Notes under the pieces: generated by a model
The model's input: only the letters and a program-made list of their open reading frames with translations
What the model was told of the DNA's origin: nothing
Database searches by the model: none
Assembly (NCBI RefSeq): GCF_053078305.1
Contig: NZ_CP166877.1
DNA: 7,047 nucleotides
Strand: one strand, 5' to 3'
Source of the DNA: a plasmid
In this document: in pieces, positions 1 through 7,047 of the stretch
How positions within the stretch are numbered: position 1 is the first letter of the stretch
Layout: every line of letters begins with the position of its first letter
Program-made: the position numbers and the translations under genes

Positions 1-1599
1 ATGATAGTTAAGTTTCATGCCAGGGGAAAAGGCGGTGGCAGTGGTCCGGTTGATTACCTGCTGGGCCGGGAGCGTAACCGGGAAGGGGCGAGAGTTCTGC
101 GGGGTGCTCCCGAAGAGGTGCGGGAACTCATCGATGCCACGCCGTTTGCGAAAAAATACACCTCGGGGGTTCTGTCTTTTGCAGAGCAGACCCTGCCACC
201 GGGAGAGCGTGAAAGGGTGATGGAGAGCTTTGAGCGGGTACTGATGCCCGGTCTTGAAAAAAATCAGTACAGCATCCTGTGGGTGGAGCACCAGGACAAG
301 GGGCGTCTTGAGCTGAATTTTGTCATCCCGAATATGGAGCTGGCGAGCGGAAAACGGCTCCAGCCCTATTACGACCGGGCGGACCGTCCGCGAATCAATG
401 CCTGGCAGACACTGGTGAATCACCATTACGGGCTGCACGACCCGAACGCACCGGAGAACAGGCGGACACTTGTCACCCCGAATAATCTGCCGAAAGCGAA
501 ACAGGAGGCCGCAGAAGCGATTACGAGGGGACTGGAGGCTCTTTACCATGCCGGAGCGCTAAAAACGCGTCAGGATGTCACTGAGGCGCTTACAGCGGCA
601 GGTTTTGAGGTGGTGAGGACAACCAGGAGCAGTATCAGTATCGCCGACCCGGAGGGCGGGCGTAATCTCAGGCTGAAAGGGGCGCTGTATGAGCAATCTT
701 TTACAAATGGGGACAGACTTCGAGAAGAAACTGAAAGAGCGTGCCGTCTCTACAGAGAACATGCTGAACAGCGAGTTCAGGAAGCTCGAAGCGTCTGTAG
801 ACAGGGAACTGAACTTAAACGGGCAGAAAATCAGAGACGCTATCAGCGCACACACAGCAGCGGTGAAAGAACAACTGGAGACGCTGAACAGTGCCGTGAA
901 CGCGCAGTTCAGCGCCACAGAGAACGAACTGGCCCGGCGGCAGGAAGAGCTGCTCTGGAAGCTGATCAAAGGGCGGATACTGTACCCGTCGCTGACGGCG
1001 CTTTGCGTCACGGGCGGGATTTTTCTGGCGTCATGGGGGCTGATTCAGTGGCAGGAAAGCCGTATTGCGGCGAACATCCTGGCTATCAGGGACCAGGAAG
1101 AGACGCTGGCGAAACTCCGGGAAAAAACATGGGGTGTGACGTATCACGAGGGCAGGAACGGGAAATTTCTGGTGCTGCCGTCCGGGGTGAAGGGGGAAAA
1201 CAACTGGACGGTGGAGAAGAAGAACGCAGTAAGACTGGTCAGGGAGTAAGTGAGTATGACAGAGCTGGAAATGCACTTACTGAACGCCTTAGAGCAATTG
1301 CAGCAGGACTATACGCAGCGGCTGAAAGACTGGGAGAGCGCCTTCACGGATTTGCAGCATATGTTCGAGCTGACACGACAGGAGAACGGGCAACTGAGGG
1401 AACAGTGCGACGACTTGAGTCAGCAGGTGCAGAGATTAGCCGGGCAGGTGGACCGCTTGAGTCGGTTATTTATCACGAACAGCAGATAAGGGATGAACAG
1501 GAAAGGCAGGCACGCCTGGAACGGGAGCGTGCGCGGTCCTGGCATGAAGAGCAGGAACGGGAAGTACGGGTATGGCGTGGCCCGTCAATGGGGATGTGA
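1..1599 (+). CDS. mbeA: Mobilization relaxase MbeA (MobA-like, HEN-type relaxase of ColE1-family plasmids)
   Basis: 532-aa ORF starting at base 1. The N-terminus MIVKFHARGKGGGSGPVDYLLGRE matches the ColE1 MbeA N-terminus as I recall it, including the catalytic Tyr in VDYLLG. A His/Glu/Asn motif (WVEHQDKGRLELNFV) fits the HEN relaxase signature. The C-terminal third is low-complexity Arg/Glu-rich and hosts the nested mbeB/mbeD frames. Confidence 0.9.
   Translation: MIVKFHARGKGGGSGPVDYLLGRERNREGARVLRGAPEEVRELIDATPFAKKYTSGVLSFAEQTLPPGERERVMESFERVLMPGLEKNQYSILWVEHQDKGRLELNFVIPNMELASGKRLQPYYDRADRPRINAWQTLVNHHYGLHDPNAPENRRTLVTPNNLPKAKQEAAEAITRGLEALYHAGALKTRQDVTEALTAAGFEVVRTTRSSISIADPEGGRNLRLKGALYEQSFTNGDRLREETERACRLYREHAEQRVQEARSVCRQGTELKRAENQRRYQRTHSSGERTTGDAEQCRERAVQRHRERTGPAAGRAALEADQRADTVPVADGALRHGRDFSGVMGADSVAGKPYCGEHPGYQGPGRDAGETPGKNMGCDVSRGQEREISGAAVRGEGGKQLDGGEEERSKTGQGVSEYDRAGNALTERLRAIAAGLYAAAERLGERLHGFAAYVRADTTGERATEGTVRRLESAGAEISRAGGPLESVIYHEQQIRDEQERQARLERERARSWHEEQEREVRVWRGPSMGM
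689..1249 (+). CDS. mbeB: Mobilization protein MbeB, nested inside mbeA in the +2 frame
   Basis: 186-aa ORF wholly inside mbeA in another frame, which is the classic ColE1 mob arrangement. ATG start is preceded by AAGGGG about 8 nt upstream. The product has a hydrophobic segment (LTALCVTGGIFLASWGLI) consistent with a membrane-associated accessory protein. Confidence 0.75.
   Translation: MSNLLQMGTDFEKKLKERAVSTENMLNSEFRKLEASVDRELNLNGQKIRDAISAHTAAVKEQLETLNSAVNAQFSATENELARRQEELLWKLIKGRILYPSLTALCVTGGIFLASWGLIQWQESRIAANILAIRDQEETLAKLREKTWGVTYHEGRNGKFLVLPSGVKGENNWTVEKKNAVRLVRE
1256..1489 (+). CDS. mbeD: Mobilization protein MbeD (reported entry-exclusion role in ColE1), nested in the mbeA 3' region
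   Basis: Same +2 frame as mbeB, directly after the mbeB stop (TAA 1247-1249). The ORF track starts it at GTG 1250, but ATG 1256 has the better Shine-Dalgarno spacing (GGGAG 1242-1246, 9-nt spacer), so the start is placed at 1256 (alternative 1250). Product is a 77-79 aa coiled-coil-like protein (MTELEMHLLNALEQLQQDYTQRL...). Confidence 0.7.
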   Translation: MTELEMHLLNALEQLQQDYTQRLKDWESAFTDLQHMFELTRQENGQLREQCDDLSQQVQRLAGQVDRLSRLFITNSR

Positions 1600-1972: not shown

Positions 1973-2395
1973 TTACTGTCTGCCCTCGTATCCATCGAGA
2001 TAAACCGCAGAAATGGTGTCTGCCATTAGTTTCATTTTTTTCGGCGAAGGCATATCGCTGTTTGTGTATTTTCTGCCAGCAAAGGTTGTTGTGCTCCGGA
2101 GTGAGTGAAAAAATTTTTCTGAGTGGAATTCTTTTACACGTTGCTGTGCCGTTTCTGCTGATACTCCGGCTGCTTTGTCTTTCACCCCCATATCCCGGAA
2201 CTGCTGAAAGAACGGGAGCATCATACGTATGGTGTCTGCTTTCTGGGTGTAGAAGTTAGGATCAAATCCATCATCTGAAGCATAAACATAATGCCGGGTA
2301 TGTCGTTCCAGGCTGGTCTTTGGTGTGCATCCTGTAAGAGCTATTGTTGCTGTTATCAGAGGTATCAGAAGCAGCCTGGCAGCGGCAGATCTCAT
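1973..2395 (-). CDS. Putative outer-membrane lipoprotein of unknown function (possibly the Exc1-like ORF of ColE1-type plasmids)
   Basis: ORF 1973..2401 (-). The N-terminus has a signal peptide and lipobox (LLLIPLITATIALTG-C). Residue +2 after the Cys is Thr, not Asp, suggesting outer-membrane sorting. Start is placed at the second ATG (2395) because AAGGAG lies 6 nt upstream of it; the first ATG at 2401 abuts the SD. No catalytic motif recognised. Confidence 0.6.
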   Translation of the reverse strand: MRSAAARLLLIPLITATIALTGCTPKTSLERHTRHYVYASDDGFDPNFYTQKADTIRMMLPFFQQFRDMGVKDKAAGVSAETAQQRVKEFHSEKFFHSLRSTTTFAGRKYTNSDMPSPKKMKLMADTISAVYLDGYEGRQ

Positions 2396-2516
2396 AAACA
2401 TCTCCTTGCGTTTTTAATCTTGATACTCAGGGAGTTATATCTCCGAAGAGTATCTCTTATCATACGTCGGTTTACTCCCAATGTGATTTTATGGTCAATG
2501 AGTCAGGAATAATCCC

Positions 2517-2795
2517 GTGAAAAAATGTGTGCCAGTCCTGCTTTTTAGTGTTCTTTCTGCTTCGGTTGCCAGTCATGCGGACAGCAATGTTTTTCAACAA
2601 AAGGCCGAGAAGACAAAAAACGGCATTGTTGCGGATGTTAATGCCAGACAGAAAATGTTCAGTAACAGACTGAAGATACAACTTCAGATCGATGAGTTGA
2701 GAGCAGAGCTGGCTGGCACCAGAGATGCCCAAAAAAGAGAGGATTTGCGTAAAAAACTGGAGTCTCTGGAGCGGCAAAAGAAATCCTTACGCTGA
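2517..2795 (+). CDS. Small exported coiled-coil protein (Sec signal peptide), function unknown
   Basis: 92-aa ORF with GTG start at 2517 and AGGA 8 nt upstream. N-terminus MKKCVPVLLFSVLSASVASHA|DS is a typical signal peptide with an A-x-A-like cleavage site. The mature ~71-aa part is highly charged and heptad-like (LKIQLQIDELRAELAGTRDAQKREDLRKKLESLERQKK). The antisense ORF 2472..2777 looks non-protein-like, which favours this strand. Confidence 0.5.
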   Translation: MKKCVPVLLFSVLSASVASHADSNVFQQKAEKTKNGIVADVNARQKMFSNRLKIQLQIDELRAELAGTRDAQKREDLRKKLESLERQKKSLR

Positions 2796-3104
2796 TGGGG
2801 GCGTATTTTCCCCGGTTTCTTCCATAACCTTTTTACCGTTCAGATATTTACGGGCGAGGCGAATGCGTCTTGCCTGGTATACCGCTGAGTAAGCCTGGGT
2901 GGGATTCACACCATTACTGATTTCACTGACCACATGACGCTGATCAGCCAGTGTCAGCGTGTAAACCTGTTTCTGGATGAGGTCACGGGCTTTGTCATAC
3001 TCATATCCGGCAGCAACAAGGGTGTCGAGAAGTCGTTTGTCTGTTTTGTTCAGTTTATGGCGGGGTGATTTGCTCACATCGTTCTCCGTTTTTTCATGAT
3101 CCAA
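2787..3104 (-). CDS. Small basic protein, possibly DNA-binding (HTH-like), function unknown
   Basis: ORF-track ORF of 105 aa that begins at a TTG (RC of 3102-3104). A more plausible start is the in-frame GTG at 3077 (codon 10), with GGAG 6 nt upstream, giving a 96-aa product. The sequence is Lys/Arg-rich with a helix-turn-helix-like stretch (VVSEISNGVNPTQAYSAVYQARRIRLARKYL). Its 3' end overlaps the convergent 92-aa gene by 9 nt. Confidence 0.45.
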   Translation of the reverse strand: MDHEKTENDVSKSPRHKLNKTDKRLLDTLVAAGYEYDKARDLIQKQVYTLTLADQRHVVSEISNGVNPTQAYSAVYQARRIRLARKYLNGKKVMEETGENTPPSA

Positions 3105-3209
3105 CAGTTTTATATCTCATCCTGATTTGCTCCGGTGTTCTGTTTCGACGTTCTCAATGCCTGCCTCCCCATAGTGTGATCCTTATTGCAAAAATGAAAA
3201 TCCATGCTC

Positions 3210-3238
3210 TTGACACGGACAATGCTGAGTAGTAGGTT
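3210..3238 (+). promoter_or_regulatory. Colicin operon sigma70 promoter (-35 TTGACA 3210-3215; putative -10 TAGGTT 3233-3238)
   Basis: Consensus -35 TTGACA, a 17-bp spacer and an imperfect -10, immediately upstream of the tandem LexA boxes and about 80 bp upstream of the colicin ATG. This is the usual colicin promoter architecture. Confidence 0.7.
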
Positions 3239-3242
3239 TTCA

Positions 3243-3273
3243 CTGTACATAAAACCAGTGGTTATATGTACAG
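3243..3273 (+). promoter_or_regulatory. Tandem LexA (SOS) operators overlapping by 1 bp
   Basis: CTGTACATAAAACCAG (3243-3258) and GTGGTTATATGTACAG (3258-3273), each close to CTGT-N8-ACAG. The double overlapping SOS box is the hallmark of colicin promoters, and the arrangement is near-identical to the colicin E1 operator as I recall it. Confidence 0.85.
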
Positions 3274-3317
3274 TATGCTGTTTTTAATTTATTGTTTTAA
3301 TTATCAAAGAGGAATTT

Positions 3318-4964
3318 ATGGCTAAAGAACTAAGTGGATATGGCCCAACTGCTGGTGAGTCTATGGGGGGAACAGGGGCGAATCTGAATCAGCAAGGTGG
3401 AAATAATAATAGTAATAGTGGGGTTCACTGGGGTGGTGGCTCTGGGCATGGTAATAATGGTGGTCAGGGAAATTCAAATTCATCTGGTTCTACATCAACT
3501 GTGATGAAAACCGGTGAGTCATATCTGACTCCGTGGGGTGATGTTGTCATTAATAATGATGGCCTTCCGGTGATGAATGGTATTGTTATGACAGAAGAGA
3601 ATTCAACTCTGGTTGATAATCCATTTGGAGGGGTCTCCAGAGTTCTTAATTCTTTAATTAGTGATATGCCATCACTTTTTGCAGAAAGCTCAGGAAATAA
3701 CAACAATAACACTGCTTCAGTTAATACTGCACCAACGAATGCTCAGGTCAGTGATATGGATAAGAGTTCGAAGGTGGTGGGTAATGTAATTAATGAAAAA
3801 CAAAAGCAGAAGAATAAAATTGCTACACAGATTAGTGAAAAACAGAAGAAAATAGAGGAGATGAAAAAAGTATTCAAGCATCATTCTTATCATGGTATCA
3901 CTGATCTTGAGAGGGATGTTGATGAGTTGCAAAAAAAATCAAATCAGCTTGATGCAGATATTAGCAAACTTAATTCTTATAAAAATACATTGCAAAGTAA
4001 AATTGGTGATGTGAATAAACAGAAGGAAGCTGAAGAAAAGGCTCGTGAAAATGCAGAGGTCGCTGAACATGAAACTCTTAATGAAGAGAAACAGGCGGTG
4101 GTGGAAGCAGAGAAGCGTTTAGATGAGGCGAAAGCTGAACTGGCGAAGGCTGAAAGTGATGTACAGAGTAAGCAAGCTACTGTTTCCAGAGTTGCAGGAG
4201 AGCTTGAAAACGCTCAGAAGAGTGTTGACGTGAAGGTCACCGGATTTCCGGGATGGCGTGACGTTCAGAAAAAACTACAGCGTCAGCTTGAAGCTAAGCA
4301 GGCTGAGTACTCCGCAGTTGAAAATGAACTTAAGAATGCTGTTAGTTTCAGGGATGGCAAGGCTGCTGAGGTAAAAGAGGCAGAGCAGAAATTAAAAGAA
4401 GCTCAGGATGCTCTTGAAAAGAGCCAGATAAAAGATGCTGTTGATACTATGGTTGGGTTTTATCAATATATAACCGAACAATATGGAGAAAAATACGCAA
4501 AAATTGCTCAGGATTTAGCGGAAAAGTCTAAAGGAAAGAAAATTCAAGGTGTTGATGAAGCTCTGGCAGCATTTGAAAAGTATAAAAATGTACTGGATAA
4601 GAAATTCAGTAAAGTTGATCGGGATGCTATTTTTAATGCGTTAGAGTCTGTTACTTATGATGAGTGGGCAAAGCATCTAGAAAAGATCTCTAAGGCTCTT
4701 AAGGTTACCGGATATTTGTCTTTCGGGAATGATGTATGGGATGGTACCCGGAAGGGATTAGAAACAGGAGACTGGAGGCCTTTATTTGTCACTCTGGAGA
4801 AGAGTGCGGTAGATTTCGGAGTGGCAAAAATTGTGGCATTAATGTTCAGTTTTATTGCTGGTGCTCCTCTTGGTTTCTGGGGGATTGCTATTATCACTGG
4901 TATTGTTTCTTCTTACATAGGGGATGATGAGCTGAACAAACTTAATGAGTTGTTAGGGATTTAA
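3318..4964 (+). CDS. cka: Pore-forming colicin of the E1/K/5/10 family; length and organisation best fit colicin K
   Basis: 548-aa ORF with AAGAGG SD 5 nt upstream. It has the three expected parts: a Gly/Asn/Ser-rich low-complexity N-terminal translocation domain, a long Lys/Glu-rich coiled-coil central region, and a C-terminal channel domain closely resembling the colicin E1 pore domain as I recall it ([59 protein letters not shown], then the hydrophobic hairpin [33 protein letters not shown]). Colicin K is 548 aa; the specific K assignment is from memory. Confidence 0.92.
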
Positions 4965-5251
4965 TATCTCTTTAGAGTGTAATATATGAAACTTGGCAAT
5001 CCTACTGGGATTGCCATTGCCAGGTAAAGTAAATAAAAAAGGTTGTATGAGTACCAAGGCTCTTTTTTTATGTTTGTCGTCTTTTGTATAAAAGAAAATA
5101 TCGTTAGTTTTGAATATGGGTATAGTAATACATGTATTGATGCAAAAAATATAAAAGCTAGAGATATATCATTGTTATAGTTAAGTGTTAAATATAATAA
5201 CCATGGCAGAAGTGATTCAGGTAAATTATGTAGGTAGTATTTTAGATACAT
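4961..5251 (-). CDS. cki: Colicin immunity protein (pore-former type, integral membrane)
   Basis: 96-aa ORF convergent with the colicin gene. It is very hydrophobic and AT-rich with about three predicted transmembrane segments ([12 protein letters not shown]..., [16 protein letters not shown]..., [23 protein letters not shown]). Position and opposite orientation between colicin and lysis genes are typical of pore-forming colicin immunity genes. Its stop overlaps the colicin stop in TTAA (4961-4964). Confidence 0.85.
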
Positions 5252-5275: not shown

Positions 5276-5407
5276 ATGAAAATAGTGCTTTTTCTAATTA
5301 CAATATTATCCTTGTCAGGATGTCAAGCAAACTATATTCGTGATGTACAAGGAGGAACCGTTGCGCCATCTTCGTCTTCTGAACTGACGGGGATCGCGGT
5401 TCAGTAG
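5276..5407 (+). CDS. ckl: Colicin lysis (release) lipoprotein
   Basis: Not in the ORF track because it is short. Manual translation gives [43 protein letters not shown] (43 aa): signal peptide, lipobox LSG-C, and the conserved mature motif [11 protein letters not shown] typical of colicin lysis proteins. GGAGG lies just upstream. Confidence 0.85.
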
Positions 5408-6475: not shown

Positions 6476-6667
6476 TCAGAGGTTTTCACCGTCATCCCCG
6501 AAGCGTGCGAGGCAGCTGCGGTAAAGCTCGTCGGCGTGGTCGTGAAGCGCTTCGCAGATGTCAGCCTGGTCGTCGGCGTCCAGTTCATTCAGTTTTTCCA
6601 GCAGGGTCAGCGTCTGGCTTCTGATGAAGCGGGCCATGTTAAGGGCGGTTTTTTCCTGTTTAGTCAC
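6476..6667 (-). CDS. rop: Rop/Rom (RNA one modulator; RNAI-RNAII kissing-complex stabiliser)
   Basis: 63 codons ending ...TKQEKTALNMARFIRSQTLTLLEKLNELDADDQADICEALHDHADELYRSCLARFGDDGENL, near-identical to ColE1/pBR322 Rop. The start appears to be GTG (RC of 6665-6667) at the position of the ATG in pBR322. The ORF-track entry 6476..6907 is an artefactual N-terminal extension. Confidence 0.9.
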   Translation of the reverse strand: MTKQEKTALNMARFIRSQTLTLLEKLNELDADDQADICEALHDHADELYRSCLARFGDDGENL

Positions 6668-6710: not shown

Positions 6711-7047
6711 ATGATACCGGTGAAACGCGAAAGAATGCTCACGATACGGGTCACGGATGAGGAACATGCGCGGCTGCTGGCACGTTGTGAGGGAAAACAA
6801 CTTGCGTCATGGATGCGTAAGGTCTGCCTGGGGGCACCGCCATCGAAAACGTCAGGCCTTCCGACACTGGCACCGCCGCTGTTGCGCCAGTTCGCTTCGG
6901 TCGGCAATAACCTGAATCAGATAGCCCGGAAGATAAACAGCGGACAGTGGTCGGGGCATGACCGGGTTCATGTGGTGGCTGCACTGATGGCCATCGGGCG
7001 TGAACTGAGTGAGCTGAGGGATGAGGTCCGTAAACAGGGAGAACGGG
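6711..7047 (+). CDS. mbeC: Mobilization protein MbeC (oriT-binding accessory protein), 3'-truncated by the window end
   Basis: Manual translation from ATG 6711 (GGAGG 6700-6704, 6-nt spacer) gives MIPVKRERMLTIRVTDEEHARLLARCEGKQLASWMRKVCLGAPPSKTSGLPTLAPPLLRQFASVGNNLNQIARKINSGQWSGHDRVHVVAALMAIGRELSELRDEVRKQGER... with no stop before the window end. It resembles ColE1 MbeC as recalled (..LAPPLLRQ...GNNLNQ.ARK.NSGQW...). An alternative start is ATG 6735 (MLTIRV...). Confidence 0.8.
   Translation, partial: MIPVKRERMLTIRVTDEEHARLLARCEGKQLASWMRKVCLGAPPSKTSGLPTLAPPLLRQFASVGNNLNQIARKINSGQWSGHDRVHVVAALMAIGRELSELRDEVRKQGER

Follow-up and report, generated by a model that had tools for sequence, protein, structure and literature searches.

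Two mobilization genes, mbeB and mbeD, nested in an alternative frame of the relaxase gene mbeA on a ColE1-type colicin K plasmid

By sequence match, the 7,047-nt stretch of DNA analysed here (the window) is a small ColE1-type colicin K plasmid, 99.6% identical to a 7047-bp colicin K plasmid. Its mobilization operon is the standard one of ColE1-type plasmids, in which mbeC precedes mbeA and mbeA encloses mbeB and mbeD. The following features were located:

6735-7047 continuing through 1-11, + strand: mbeC, encoding a MobC-family relaxosome accessory protein; a 107-aa ORF that wraps around the window origin
1-1599, + strand: mbeA, encoding the relaxase (MOBP5/HEN), 532 aa (ORF and NCBIfam relax_MbeA_E1)
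676-682, + strand: putative Shine-Dalgarno box of mbeB, AAAGGGG (sequence)
689-1249, + strand: mbeB, 186 aa, in the +2 frame relative to mbeA (ORF and Pfam MbeB_N)
1241-1246, + strand: putative Shine-Dalgarno box of mbeD, AGGGAG, within the last mbeB codons (sequence)
1256-1489, + strand: mbeD, 77 aa, +2 frame, encoding a coiled-coil protein (Pfam MbeD_MobD and NCBIfam plas_excl_MbeD)
1490-1599, + strand: single-coding 3' end of mbeA, 36 aa (ORF and alignment)
1658-1686, + strand: terminator-like hairpin and T-run downstream of mbeA (consensus scan only)

As in other ColE1-type operons, mbeC lies immediately upstream of mbeA, with its 3' end overlapping the first 11 nt of mbeA, and mbeB and mbeD stand in tandem in one frame, wholly inside mbeA. 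The 107-aa mbeC product is identical to the annotated MobC of NZ_CP129351.1. Positions 689, 1250 and 1256 each leave a remainder of 2 on division by 3, which places them in a frame shifted +1 from that of mbeA, and the nested pair takes up 801 of the 1599 nt (50%) of mbeA, in its last 57%. The original prediction, which placed mbeB and mbeD back-to-back in the +2 frame within the 3' two-thirds of mbeA, is confirmed by the ORFs and by the protein families. A consensus scan found no promoter-like site inside 1-1900; the hairpin at 1658-1686 is possibly the end of the mob operon.

MbeA matched NCBIfam model NF047848 (relax_MbeA_E1) over residues 1-511 with 714 bits (cut-off 500 bits), and the Pfam Relaxase model with an E-value of 7e-6 (26.8 bits, cut-off 24.6). 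Residues Y19, H97, E104 and N106, which we take to be those numbered as catalytic by Varsaki in 2003, are invariant in 24 aligned MbeA sequences. The protein has the motif I Tyr and an H-x6-E-x-N motif that replaces the 3-His motif III, as HEN relaxases are defined (PMC12857230); in the literature, MbeA nicks oriT. From its N-terminus, MbeA consists of a catalytic domain (residues ~1-229), a conserved helix, a variable linker, a helical C-terminal region and the end GPSMGM. Residues 230-282 and ~417-497 are conserved and predicted helical by AF2, with many invariant residues in 230-282 and 417-480. The linker between them was modelled at a pLDDT of about 25 with helices on both sides, in an AF2 model of low confidence overall (mean pLDDT 50, 24-sequence alignment). 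A homologue search with the C-terminal 116 residues, aimed at relaxases that have this region and no mbeD, returned only 17 short fragments of 63-183 aa; gene callers evidently split mbeA.

The mbeB product matched Pfam MbeB_N at 7.2e-24 (84.3 bits, cut-off 22), a domain that spans only the first 52 MbeB residues; no MbeB model of NCBIfam matched, and in RefSeq an identical protein is called 'MbeB family mobilization protein'. MbeB is predicted to form a long helix, within which lies one transmembrane segment (residues ~101-119), and a small C-terminal beta domain (AF2 mean pLDDT 80), and the Kyte-Doolittle maximum of the transmembrane segment is 1.7-2.2 in 5 homologues. The mbeB ATG lies at mbeA nt 689 in 23/24 loci and one codon later in the remaining one (L050). 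It is preceded at 6 nt by AAAGGGG, which falls within mbeA codons for a conserved R-L-K-G-A, and an (A/G)AGG(G/A)G box stands at the same distance in 24/24 aligned loci. The mbeB stop TAA occupies 1247-1249, and this TAA plus 6 nt separates mbeB from the mbeD ATG; the gap from stop to start is 0-6 nt in the 24 loci, all of which have a purine-rich GGAG-like box before mbeD. A GTG at 1250, which opens a 79-aa ORF (1250-1489), was considered as the mbeD start and rejected in favour of the conserved, RefSeq-annotated ATG at 1256. The mbeD product matched Pfam MbeD_MobD at 1e-35 (122 bits, cut-off 21.6) and the NCBIfam equivalog NF033829 (plas_excl_MbeD) with 123 bits (cut-off 60), and MbeD-like sequence is contained in 3033 plasmid records. 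In ColE1-type plasmids two ORFs lie wholly inside mobA, and MbeB serves as an accessory protein in the relaxosome or in mobilization (PMC5935869, which describes roles for both MbeB and MbeD); MbeD has a minor effect on mobilization and confers entry exclusion, the latter stated in PMC2831885 with reference to Yamada 1995. PMC9264714 contains no proteomic evidence for Mbe proteins.

ColE1 (NC_001371.1) has the genes at the same positions, in keeping with the claim that such nesting typifies mob regions of the ColE1 type: its mbeB begins at mbeA nt 689, mbeD (77 aa) follows the mbeB stop after 6 nt, mbeA continues for ~35 codons beyond mbeD, mbeC overlaps the mbeA start, and the Pfam and NCBIfam families are the same. 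Between ColE1 and the window, MbeA is 65% identical overall (85% in residues 1-229, 38% in the linker), MbeB 48% and MbeD 62%; MbeA is 532 aa long in the window vs 517 in ColE1, and MbeB 186 vs 172. The ColE1 mob region was reportedly the subject of work by Boyd, Archer & Sherratt in 1989. The mob region of the window is the ColK-type variant. The 7-kb plasmids of the pColK-K235 type (such as NZ_CP046541.1, NZ_CP129351.1 and NZ_CP074753.1) carry a mob region at least 99% identical and the colicin K operon, and differ from the window by a few SNPs and nothing substantial, with all ORFs intact. No mbeE-like gene was found in the window by Pfam, NCBIfam or comparison with ColE1. ColK and ColA form a subgroup of the ColE1-superfamily mob regions according to Francia et al. 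2004 as cited in PMC5935869. The same layout was found in 27 full-length relatives from different species at 20-45% nucleotide divergence. Relatives at least 99% identical differ by substitutions only and keep all three ORFs intact, and the +2-frame stops or frameshifts that the original prediction had named as contrary evidence do not occur among them.

It could be argued that only mbeA codes here and that the +2 ORFs are by-products of a protein rich in Arg/Glu/Gly/Ala, for whose codons stops in the next frame are rare. In the first 687 nt of mbeA, outside the overlap, there are 9 +2-frame stops; across 689-1489 the +2 frame has only 2, the ends of mbeB and mbeD, and the +3 frame 25. With the MbeA residues held fixed, +2 ORFs of 186 codons or more arose in 2-8% of codon resamplings, which counts in favour of this reading, and ORF length by itself is weak evidence for nested genes. 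The reverse resampling is decisive: with the MbeB and MbeD residues fixed, 13.6 stops were expected in the mbeA frame, which was open in 0/20,000 resamplings, ruling out that it is open by chance. In 27/27 full-length relatives no stop interrupts mbeA over the length of mbeB and mbeD. Substitutions that create stops are depleted in both frames in every segment of the overlap (p = 7e-4 to 8e-11). Upstream of the overlap, in the 5' part of mbeA, A-synonymous changes making mock +2 stops were about neutral (20 observed vs 15 expected), and for all changes 31 were observed vs 49.7 expected. At the level of sequence comparison, all three reading frames are shown to be maintained by selection across the relatives. 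The depletion of stops in the mbeB/mbeD frame argues against an mbeA-only locus, as do the matches to curated families, the number of MbeD-bearing records, the start codons and Shine-Dalgarno boxes kept in 24 loci with a junction of invariably 0-6 nt, the confident MbeB fold with its conserved transmembrane helix and the published genetics of entry exclusion to which PMC2831885 refers; we regard such a locus as highly improbable.

Open runs of 110-229 codons also lie on the antisense strand all along mbeA. Chance occurrence of the nested ORFs in this single sequence would have a modest prior, since genes rich in G+C and purines do contain long alternative-frame ORFs, and the antisense runs count on the same side. 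This explanation is already refuted by ColE1 and dozens of diverged loci, which share the layout and the start position, and we give it practically no credence.

Codon-position-specific conservation, the check proposed with the original prediction, showed that constraint is divided differently between the two frames from segment to segment. Substitution counts were parsimony-based and are approximate, with saturated divergence, and were taken from related, recombining sequences in alignments guided by one frame or the other; rates are given as relative only, because double-synonymous events were too few (0-17 per segment). Three segments were distinguished by divergence:

689-846, + strand: segment 1, MbeB residues 1-52 over MbeA residues 230-282
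847-1249, + strand: segment 2, MbeB residues 53-186 over the MbeA linker, residues 283-416
1256-1489, + strand: segment 3, mbeD over MbeA residues 419-497

Divergence at mbeA codon positions 1/2/3 of segment 1 was 0.20/0.20/0.30, and amino-acid divergence was 0.30 for MbeA and 0.42 for MbeB, the latter equal to that of the non-coding third frame, a point on the side of the reading in which only mbeA codes. Both proteins appear conserved here, with a non-significant trend towards stronger constraint on MbeA (class ratio 0.53-0.70, p about 0.07-0.08). As MbeB_N spans residues 1-52 and MbeA tends to be better conserved there, part of the conservation of MbeB_N may be a shadow of MbeA. The MbeB part encoded by segment 2 comprises the transmembrane helix and the C-terminal domain; MbeA residues 283-416 are hypervariable, with many in-frame indels, and predicted disordered. 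Amino-acid divergence of MbeA in this segment was 0.62-0.64 vs 0.64-0.66 for the non-coding third frame, and changes that alter MbeA and are silent in MbeB exceeded the reverse class 1.6-2.8-fold (p = 5e-9 to 1e-3). By these counts MbeB is the constrained frame of segment 2, which again argues against coding by mbeA only, and MbeA appears to be kept open and otherwise almost free. Segment 3 diverged by about 0.14/0.20/0.23 at mbeD codon positions 1/2/3; each codon position (0.14-0.24) lies below the 0.40 of wobble positions in the N-terminal part. The class ratio was ~1.1-1.3 over all branches and up to 1.7 on the shortest, not significant, and MbeA and MbeD, both helical, seem to be constrained about equally.

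The composition of the overlapped part of MbeA had been described as a low-complexity Arg/Glu/Gly-rich tail through which dual coding is tolerated. Residues 230-532 are indeed rich in these residues (R15 E13 G13 A12 %), but their low complexity is only moderate (entropy 3.82 bits vs 4.03 for the N-terminal part). The explanation fits 847-1249, but not 689-846 and 1256-1489, where MbeA is conserved and helical. Nor is the overlapped part a terminal tail: in 27 loci MbeA runs 28-41 aa past mbeD, through otherwise variable sequence, to a conserved G-P-S/T-L/M end. In the overlap, the wobble position rich in G+C is position 3 of the mbeB and mbeD codons, equivalent to position 1 of the mbeA codons (0.78-0.81 in the two longer segments), and G+C at mbeA position 3 falls from 0.70 to 0.35-0.43; in 1490-1599 the G+C wobble is back at mbeA position 3 (0.67). 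Synonymous codon usage in the overlap is gene-like in the mbeB/mbeD frame and noise-like in the mbeA frame, and in segment 2 the mbeB/mbeD frame scored 0.25 vs 0.23 for non-overlapped mbeA (log-likelihood units per codon), as gene-like as mbeA outside the overlap and a further argument against coding by mbeA only. The products show complementary biases, MbeB and MbeD being rich in L/Q/E/K and MbeA in A/R/E/G. Because the G+C-rich wobble position falls in the mbeB/mbeD frame, the Arg/Glu/Gly/Ala bias of MbeA looks like a result of the overlap and not a precondition for it.

The same codon usage and G+C periodicity would suit the converse alternative, in which only mbeB and mbeD are functional here, the working relaxase ends after 230-290 aa, and what follows in the mbeA ORF is non-functional read-through. 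MbeA residues 283-416, predicted disordered, carry no detectable amino-acid constraint; PGAP truncates mbeA in many records, and the reading of mbeA as a pseudogene 'missing C-terminus' stands in some RefSeq records. Shortly before an intact mbeB, the relaxase frame is interrupted in Neisseria pJD1, an Aeromonas plasmid and Pseudoalteromonas pKW1. We consider a short relaxase very unlikely nonetheless, for mbeA is open through the nested genes and 28-41 codons further in 27/27 loci where ~14 stops would be expected, stop-creating changes in its frame are depleted in all three segments, residues 230-282 and 417-480 are rich in invariant positions and the GPS[LM] end is conserved. The NCBIfam MbeA model covers the whole length, the full 532-aa protein is annotated in other RefSeq records, and a published analysis deems the pseudogene calls erroneous, an annotation error in 487 plasmids (bioRxiv 10.1101/2023.11.08.566193). 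A programmed frameshift was considered for pJD1, the Aeromonas plasmid and pKW1 and rejected, as the positions (MbeA residues ~170, 30 plus 180, and 202, respectively) and directions of the breaks differ; for the same reason the breaks look like independent mutations or sequencing errors.

On the evidence of reading frames, families and divergence, 689-1489 is very probably translated in two frames, with mbeA, mbeB and mbeD giving three real proteins. The mob operon would be transcribed as one mRNA from a promoter near oriT, upstream of mbeC. Ribosomes starting at nt 1 would produce the relaxase MbeA; others would initiate within the gene, at AAAGGGG-N6-ATG (689), and make MbeB in the frame shifted by +1. 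These would stop at the TAA at 1247, and coupling or re-initiation at AGGGAG-N9-ATG (1256) would then yield MbeD. The first 160 nt of the overlap and the mbeD region would each encode two alpha-helical, conserved products with complementary compositional biases. Over the middle 400 nt the sequence would be dictated by MbeB, with its transmembrane helix and small beta domain, and MbeA would only have to remain open there, as a flexible linker of variable length that joins the N-terminal nuclease domain to the conserved helical C-terminal region.

Overprinting may have created the 3' half of mbeA as the younger frame, when a short relaxase of ~230-290 codons was extended across a pre-existing mbeB-mbeD cassette, a proposal that we make tentatively and hold to be somewhat doubtful. 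If it were true, the central 130 MbeA residues would be selected only for openness and flexibility, and their richness in Gly/Arg/Ala/Glu/Asp would be a read-out of G/C-ending mbeB codons. The MbeA part over mbeD would have gained a function later, e.g. a coupling-protein contact or a transfer signal, and MbeB_N would be conserved partly from lying under a conserved MbeA helix. The nested layout persists in a Klebsiella locus with a 59% identical relaxase, where the nested ORFs are Pfam-positive, and at the ORF level in Acinetobacter pRAY* (relaxase 42%), where they fall below Pfam thresholds; the +2-frame ORFs of a Moraxella relaxase gene (34%) are only possible counterparts of mbeB and mbeD.

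Nesting of mbeB and mbeD is already known from ColE1, ColK and ColA, with RSF1010 mobB within mobA as an analogue; the arrangement being textbook ColE1 biology, its confirmation here mainly clears the finding. RSF1010 mobB lies where mobA encodes the linker from the relaxase to the C-terminal domain, and its membrane-associated product aids type IV transfer of the relaxase. Same-strand, out-of-frame overprinted gene pairs occur in phiX174-like small phages and viruses. The window shares with the phiX174-type pairs long dual coding in which one frame is gene-like in its codons and the product of the other is biased and partly disordered; it differs from them in being part of a plasmid operon and in the good conservation of both frames in two of its three overlap segments. 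RSF1010/R1162 (MOBQ) likewise has a small accessory gene out of frame and wholly inside the relaxase gene (PMC2200642), but has one nested gene and not two, and its C-terminal domain is a primase. MOB-suite types a plasmid nearly identical to the window as MOBP, and the relaxase matches the MbeA model; RSF1010 mobA-mobB is an analogue, and the window is not a member of that group.

Automatic annotation is unable to represent the nested arrangement: RefSeq records carry either the full mbeA without mbeB and mbeD, or mbeB and mbeD with mbeA as a truncated pseudogene. Such split annotation can bias estimates of how many ColE1 plasmids bear a relaxase and are therefore mobilizable. With both frames constrained, one frame dominant, and both products helical side by side, the overlap is a small natural example of three ways in which two frames share DNA, and it could be a convenient system for the study of dual coding.

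The window spans an entire small plasmid of the ColE1 type and begins at base 1 of mbeA. Bases 1-1800 matched 1513 plasmid records and were found in plasmids of 849 of 5426 complete E. coli genomes; the top matches were 7-kb colicin K plasmids (99.4-99.9%), among them NZ_CP046541.1 (7047 bp), from which the gene content outside the mob region was taken over by annotation transfer. The features are as follows.

1-1599, + strand: mbeA, relaxase gene, 532 aa (ORF listing)
676-682: mbeB Shine-Dalgarno box, AAAGGGG
689-1249, + strand: mbeB, 186-aa ORF, frame +1-shifted relative to mbeA
1241-1246: GGAG-like box of mbeD, AGGGAG, inside the final mbeB codons and 5' of the mbeD ATG
1250-1489, + strand: mbeD ORF, 79 aa, frame +1-shifted relative to mbeA
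689-846: overlap segment 1, MbeB 1-52 over MbeA 230-282
847-1249: overlap segment 2, MbeB 53-186 over MbeA 283-416
1256-1489: overlap segment 3, MbeD over MbeA 419-497
1973-2395, - strand: Exc2 lipoprotein gene (transferred)
3318-4964: cka (transferred)
4961-5251, - strand: cki (transferred)
5276-5407: lysis gene (transferred)
6476-6667, - strand: rom (transferred)
6735-7047 and 1-11, spanning the window origin: mbeC, whose translation equals the annotated 107-aa MobC protein

The original prediction placed mbeB and mbeD back-to-back in the +2 frame of mbeA, and it is correct in both what it observed and the genes it named, as the ORFs, the family matches and the geometry of prototype ColE1 agree. 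The nested ORFs matched Pfam MbeB_N (7e-24) and MbeD_MobD (1e-35), and NCBIfam scores were 714 bits for relax_MbeA_E1 (cut-off 500) and 123 bits for plas_excl_MbeD (cut-off 60). The conserved mbeD start, used by RefSeq, is the ATG at 1256, giving 77 aa. In the ColE1 record (mbeA 2180-3733), mbeB starts at mbeA nt 689 and mbeD follows after a 6-nt gap, as in the window; the layout is indeed characteristic of ColE1 mob regions. Window and ColE1 proteins are 65% (MbeA), 48% (MbeB) and 62% (MbeD) identical, and the window proteins are at least 99% identical to those of known colicin K plasmids.

The nested arrangement is already known. It is the ColE1 mob organisation of Boyd et al. 1989, as that work is cited in PMC3447787 and PMC9264714, and other ColE1-superfamily plasmids carry two ORFs wholly inside mobA (PMC5935869). 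MbeB is listed there as part of the relaxosome and MbeD as an entry-exclusion protein (PMC5935869), the latter role also being given in PMC2831885 where it cites Yamada et al. 1995. Outside the family, RSF1010/R1162 comes closest: there mobB is contained in mobA/repB in a different frame (PMC2200642); the likeness is in design only, the relaxase there being MOBQ whereas that of the window is MOBP.

Over the 687 nt of mbeA that precede the overlap, 9 stops interrupt the +2 frame; over 689-1489 there are only 2 (the mbeB and mbeD ends), where the +3 frame has 25. ORF length by itself is weak evidence for nested genes, +2 ORFs 186 or more codons long having arisen in 2-8% of trials in which MbeA residues were fixed and codons resampled. 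Resampling with the MbeB and MbeD residues kept was decisive against a chance-open mbeA frame, which then held 13.6 stops on average and was open in 0 of 20,000 trials.

Relatives were sampled as 45 loci obtained by MbeD alignment against one-genome-per-species contigs, to which several plasmid loci were added. The mob region is complete in 27 loci. Each of these keeps mbeA free of stops through both nested genes and for another 28-41 codons, and mbeD starts 0-6 nt after the mbeB stop; mbeB starts at mbeA nt 689 in each except L050 (one codon later). Relatives at least 99% identical differ by substitutions only, with all three ORFs intact, and loci departing from the layout are truncated or deleted remnants, mostly within large contigs. 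The pattern that the original prediction had named as contrary to it, a +2 frame disrupted by stops or frameshifts with only mbeA conserved, was seen in 0 full-length loci. Short contigs in assemblies of unlikely hosts, including a Lachnospiraceae MAG, Halobacillus, Paramuribaculum, Agrobacterium, a Paceibacterota MAG, Cutibacterium and Streptomyces, carry ColE1-type mob fragments (L011, L014, L015, L017, L022, L028, L049), some with a low-coverage label; they probably came in as contamination from enterobacterial or cloning-vector-like plasmids.

For frame-specific conservation, two sets of codon alignments of 24 distinct mob regions were built, one led by the MbeA sequence and the other by that of MbeB or MbeD; divergence was taken per codon position, and parsimony-inferred substitutions were sorted according to what they change in each frame. 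The control, the 687 nt of mbeA 5' of the overlap, behaves as expected of one frame alone, with mbeA positions 1/2/3 diverging by 0.12/0.08/0.40. The substitution counts that follow come from related, mosaic sequences with parsimony saturated on deep branches, and the double-synonymous class held too few counts for absolute omega values. In the control, changes altering MbeA and silent in the mock +2 frame were 0.13-0.18 times as frequent as the reverse class; mbeA-synonymous changes creating mock-frame stops occurred at about the neutral rate (20 observed, 15 expected), and mock-frame stops overall numbered 31 against 49.7 expected.

In segment 1, divergence at mbeA positions 1/2/3 was 0.20/0.20/0.30, and amino-acid divergence was 0.30 for MbeA and 0.42 for MbeB, the latter no better than the third frame. 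Both frames are open with invariant residues, and the class ratio (changes altering MbeA but not the nested protein, relative to the reverse) was 0.53-0.70 (p about 0.07-0.08), a non-significant trend towards stronger constraint on MbeA. Segment 2 diverged by 0.37-0.46 at every codon position, with numerous in-frame indels. Here the MbeB frame dominates and MbeA is under essentially stop avoidance only: amino-acid divergence of MbeA (0.62-0.64) equals that of the third frame (0.64-0.66) and is lower for MbeB (0.56-0.58), MbeA-altering, MbeB-silent changes were 1.6-2.8 times the reverse class (p = 5e-9 to 1e-3), and stop-creating changes in the mbeA frame numbered 12 against 36 expected. In segment 3 the two frames are about equally constrained. 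Divergence at mbeD positions 1/2/3 (0.14/0.20/0.23) was well under the free-wobble 0.40 throughout, amino-acid divergence rose from 0.27 (MbeD) through 0.32 (MbeA) to 0.38 (third frame), and the class ratio, about 1.1-1.3 over all branches and up to 1.7 on the shortest, was not significant. The 36-aa MbeA end past mbeD is variable and closes with a conserved G-P-S/T-L/M. Codon-position conservation, proposed earlier as a check, found both frames conserved in segments 1 and 3, and in segment 2 a dominant MbeB over a nearly free MbeA.

Over 1-847 the bulk of ColE1-like plasmids are about 82% identical to the window, and for these megablast similarity breaks off abruptly at 847-881, coinciding with the end of the conserved MbeA helix and of the MbeB_N region; past the break, MbeB C-termini are of distinct types, e.g. 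...TWGV..FLVLP..W.. and ...GVQLSTCGE..RCV.VNPEAG... The abrupt loss and the distinct types suggest a mosaic or recombining specificity module.

Predicted structures, made from the same shallow alignments, agree with the segment-wise conservation. The MbeB prediction was confident (mean pLDDT 80), with a helix at 2-146 that includes a hydrophobic segment (Kyte-Doolittle 1.7-2.2, kept in five homologues) and a small beta domain. That of MbeA was poor overall (mean pLDDT 50) yet clearly patterned; residues 306-437 were predicted at pLDDT about 25 without secondary structure, with helices at 237-281, 422-458 and 465-525 on either side.

The overlapped part of MbeA had been described as a low-complexity Arg/Glu/Gly-rich tail by which dual coding is tolerated. 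The composition is borne out (R15 E13 G13 A12 % over aa 230-532), and the explanation holds for about half of the overlap, the MbeA linker of segment 2. It fails for the rest: conserved helices lie over the mbeB start and all of mbeD, and the protein runs on past the nested genes. The overlap itself is the better explanation of the bias, given the G+C periodicity, the mbeB-frame codon usage and the wobble position. In the non-overlapped parts it is mbeA position 3 that carries the G+C-rich wobble (0.70 and 0.67), and inside the overlap this position falls to 0.35-0.43; mbeA position 1, the third position of mbeB and mbeD, reaches 0.78-0.81 in segments 2 and 3, and its value in segment 1 (0.68) is that of the non-overlapped part. 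Any protein that takes its first codon base from the G/C-ending wobble of a second gene must be enriched in Gly, Ala, Glu, Asp, Val, Arg, Pro and Gln. Scored against non-overlapped mbeA (+0.23 on itself), synonymous codon usage was gene-like for mbeB in segment 2 (+0.25 per codon) and noise-like for mbeA in all three segments (-0.17 to -0.27, comparable to mock frames). The bias would also fit an mbeA whose 3' half is the younger, overprinted frame.

The layout is kept in a Klebsiella plasmid (relaxase 59% identical, nested ORFs Pfam-positive) and, at ORF level, in Acinetobacter pRAY* (42%), whose ORFs fall under Pfam thresholds. In three distant relatives, Neisseria gonorrhoeae pJD1 (L055), Aeromonas caviae (L056) and Pseudoalteromonas pKW1 (L057), the relaxase frame is broken shortly 5' of mbeB, at about MbeA aa 170-200. 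Past the break the MbeA-like frame runs on without a stop for about 290 codons in the first two, where mbeB is intact, and about 380 in pKW1, whose open mbeB-like ORF has a weak MbeB_N match under cut-off. A shared programmed frameshift was rejected as break positions and directions differ; the breaks are probably independent frameshifts or sequencing errors.

A purine-rich Shine-Dalgarno box, (A/G)AGG(G/A)G, lies 6-7 nt 5' of the mbeB ATG in 24 of 24 non-identical loci, and the GGAG-like box of mbeD falls inside the end of mbeB. Over 1-1900 no promoter-like sites were found; 3' of mbeA, at 1658-1676, lies a terminator-like hairpin. From the boxes, the lack of an internal promoter-like site and the hairpin we infer that the likeliest expression mode would be one co-transcript with internal initiation at mbeB and mbeB-mbeD coupling.

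Directly 3' of mbeD, an 89-aa ORF in the +2 frame (1493-1762, + strand) overlaps the mbeA end. It had no match in Pfam or NCBIfam, is missing from the 85%-identical relative L004, and in ColE1 the corresponding frame is closed; over 1490-1599 the G+C periodicity tracks mbeA alone. The ORF is probably spurious and no mbeE. Antisense ORFs lie opposite the overlap at 559-1011 (- strand, 150 aa) and 1031-1276 (- strand, 81 aa). A fourth gene was rejected, since antisense stretches of 110-229 codons without a stop are present throughout mbeA in 24 of 24 loci, the non-overlapped part included, and are generic to this G+C-/purine-rich gene. The coding strand shows strong purine excess over the dual-coding stretch, 600-1500 (GC skew +0.15 to +0.31, AT skew +0.16 to +0.32), waning past about 1650.

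RefSeq/PGAP cannot represent the nested genes. For the window region 1-1599 and six related loci (L002 to L007), annotation took one of two styles: full mbeA without mbeB and mbeD, or mbeB and mbeD with an mbeA pseudogene of about 320-800 nt ('incomplete; missing C-terminus'), at times named merely 'nuclease'. The PLSDB gene table has no relaxase where mbeA is labelled a pseudogene. A protein database search with the MbeA C-terminal 116 aa returned fragments of 63-183 aa only and no full-length relaxase, which suggests that the overlapped part of mbeA is likewise split or lost by the gene callers behind large metagenome protein sets. The pseudogene artefact has been judged erroneous in 487 plasmids (bioRxiv 10.1101/2023.11.08.566193). 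The by-products of value are the segment-wise map of the constrained frame and this annotation problem, which may skew counts of relaxase-bearing ColE1 plasmids.
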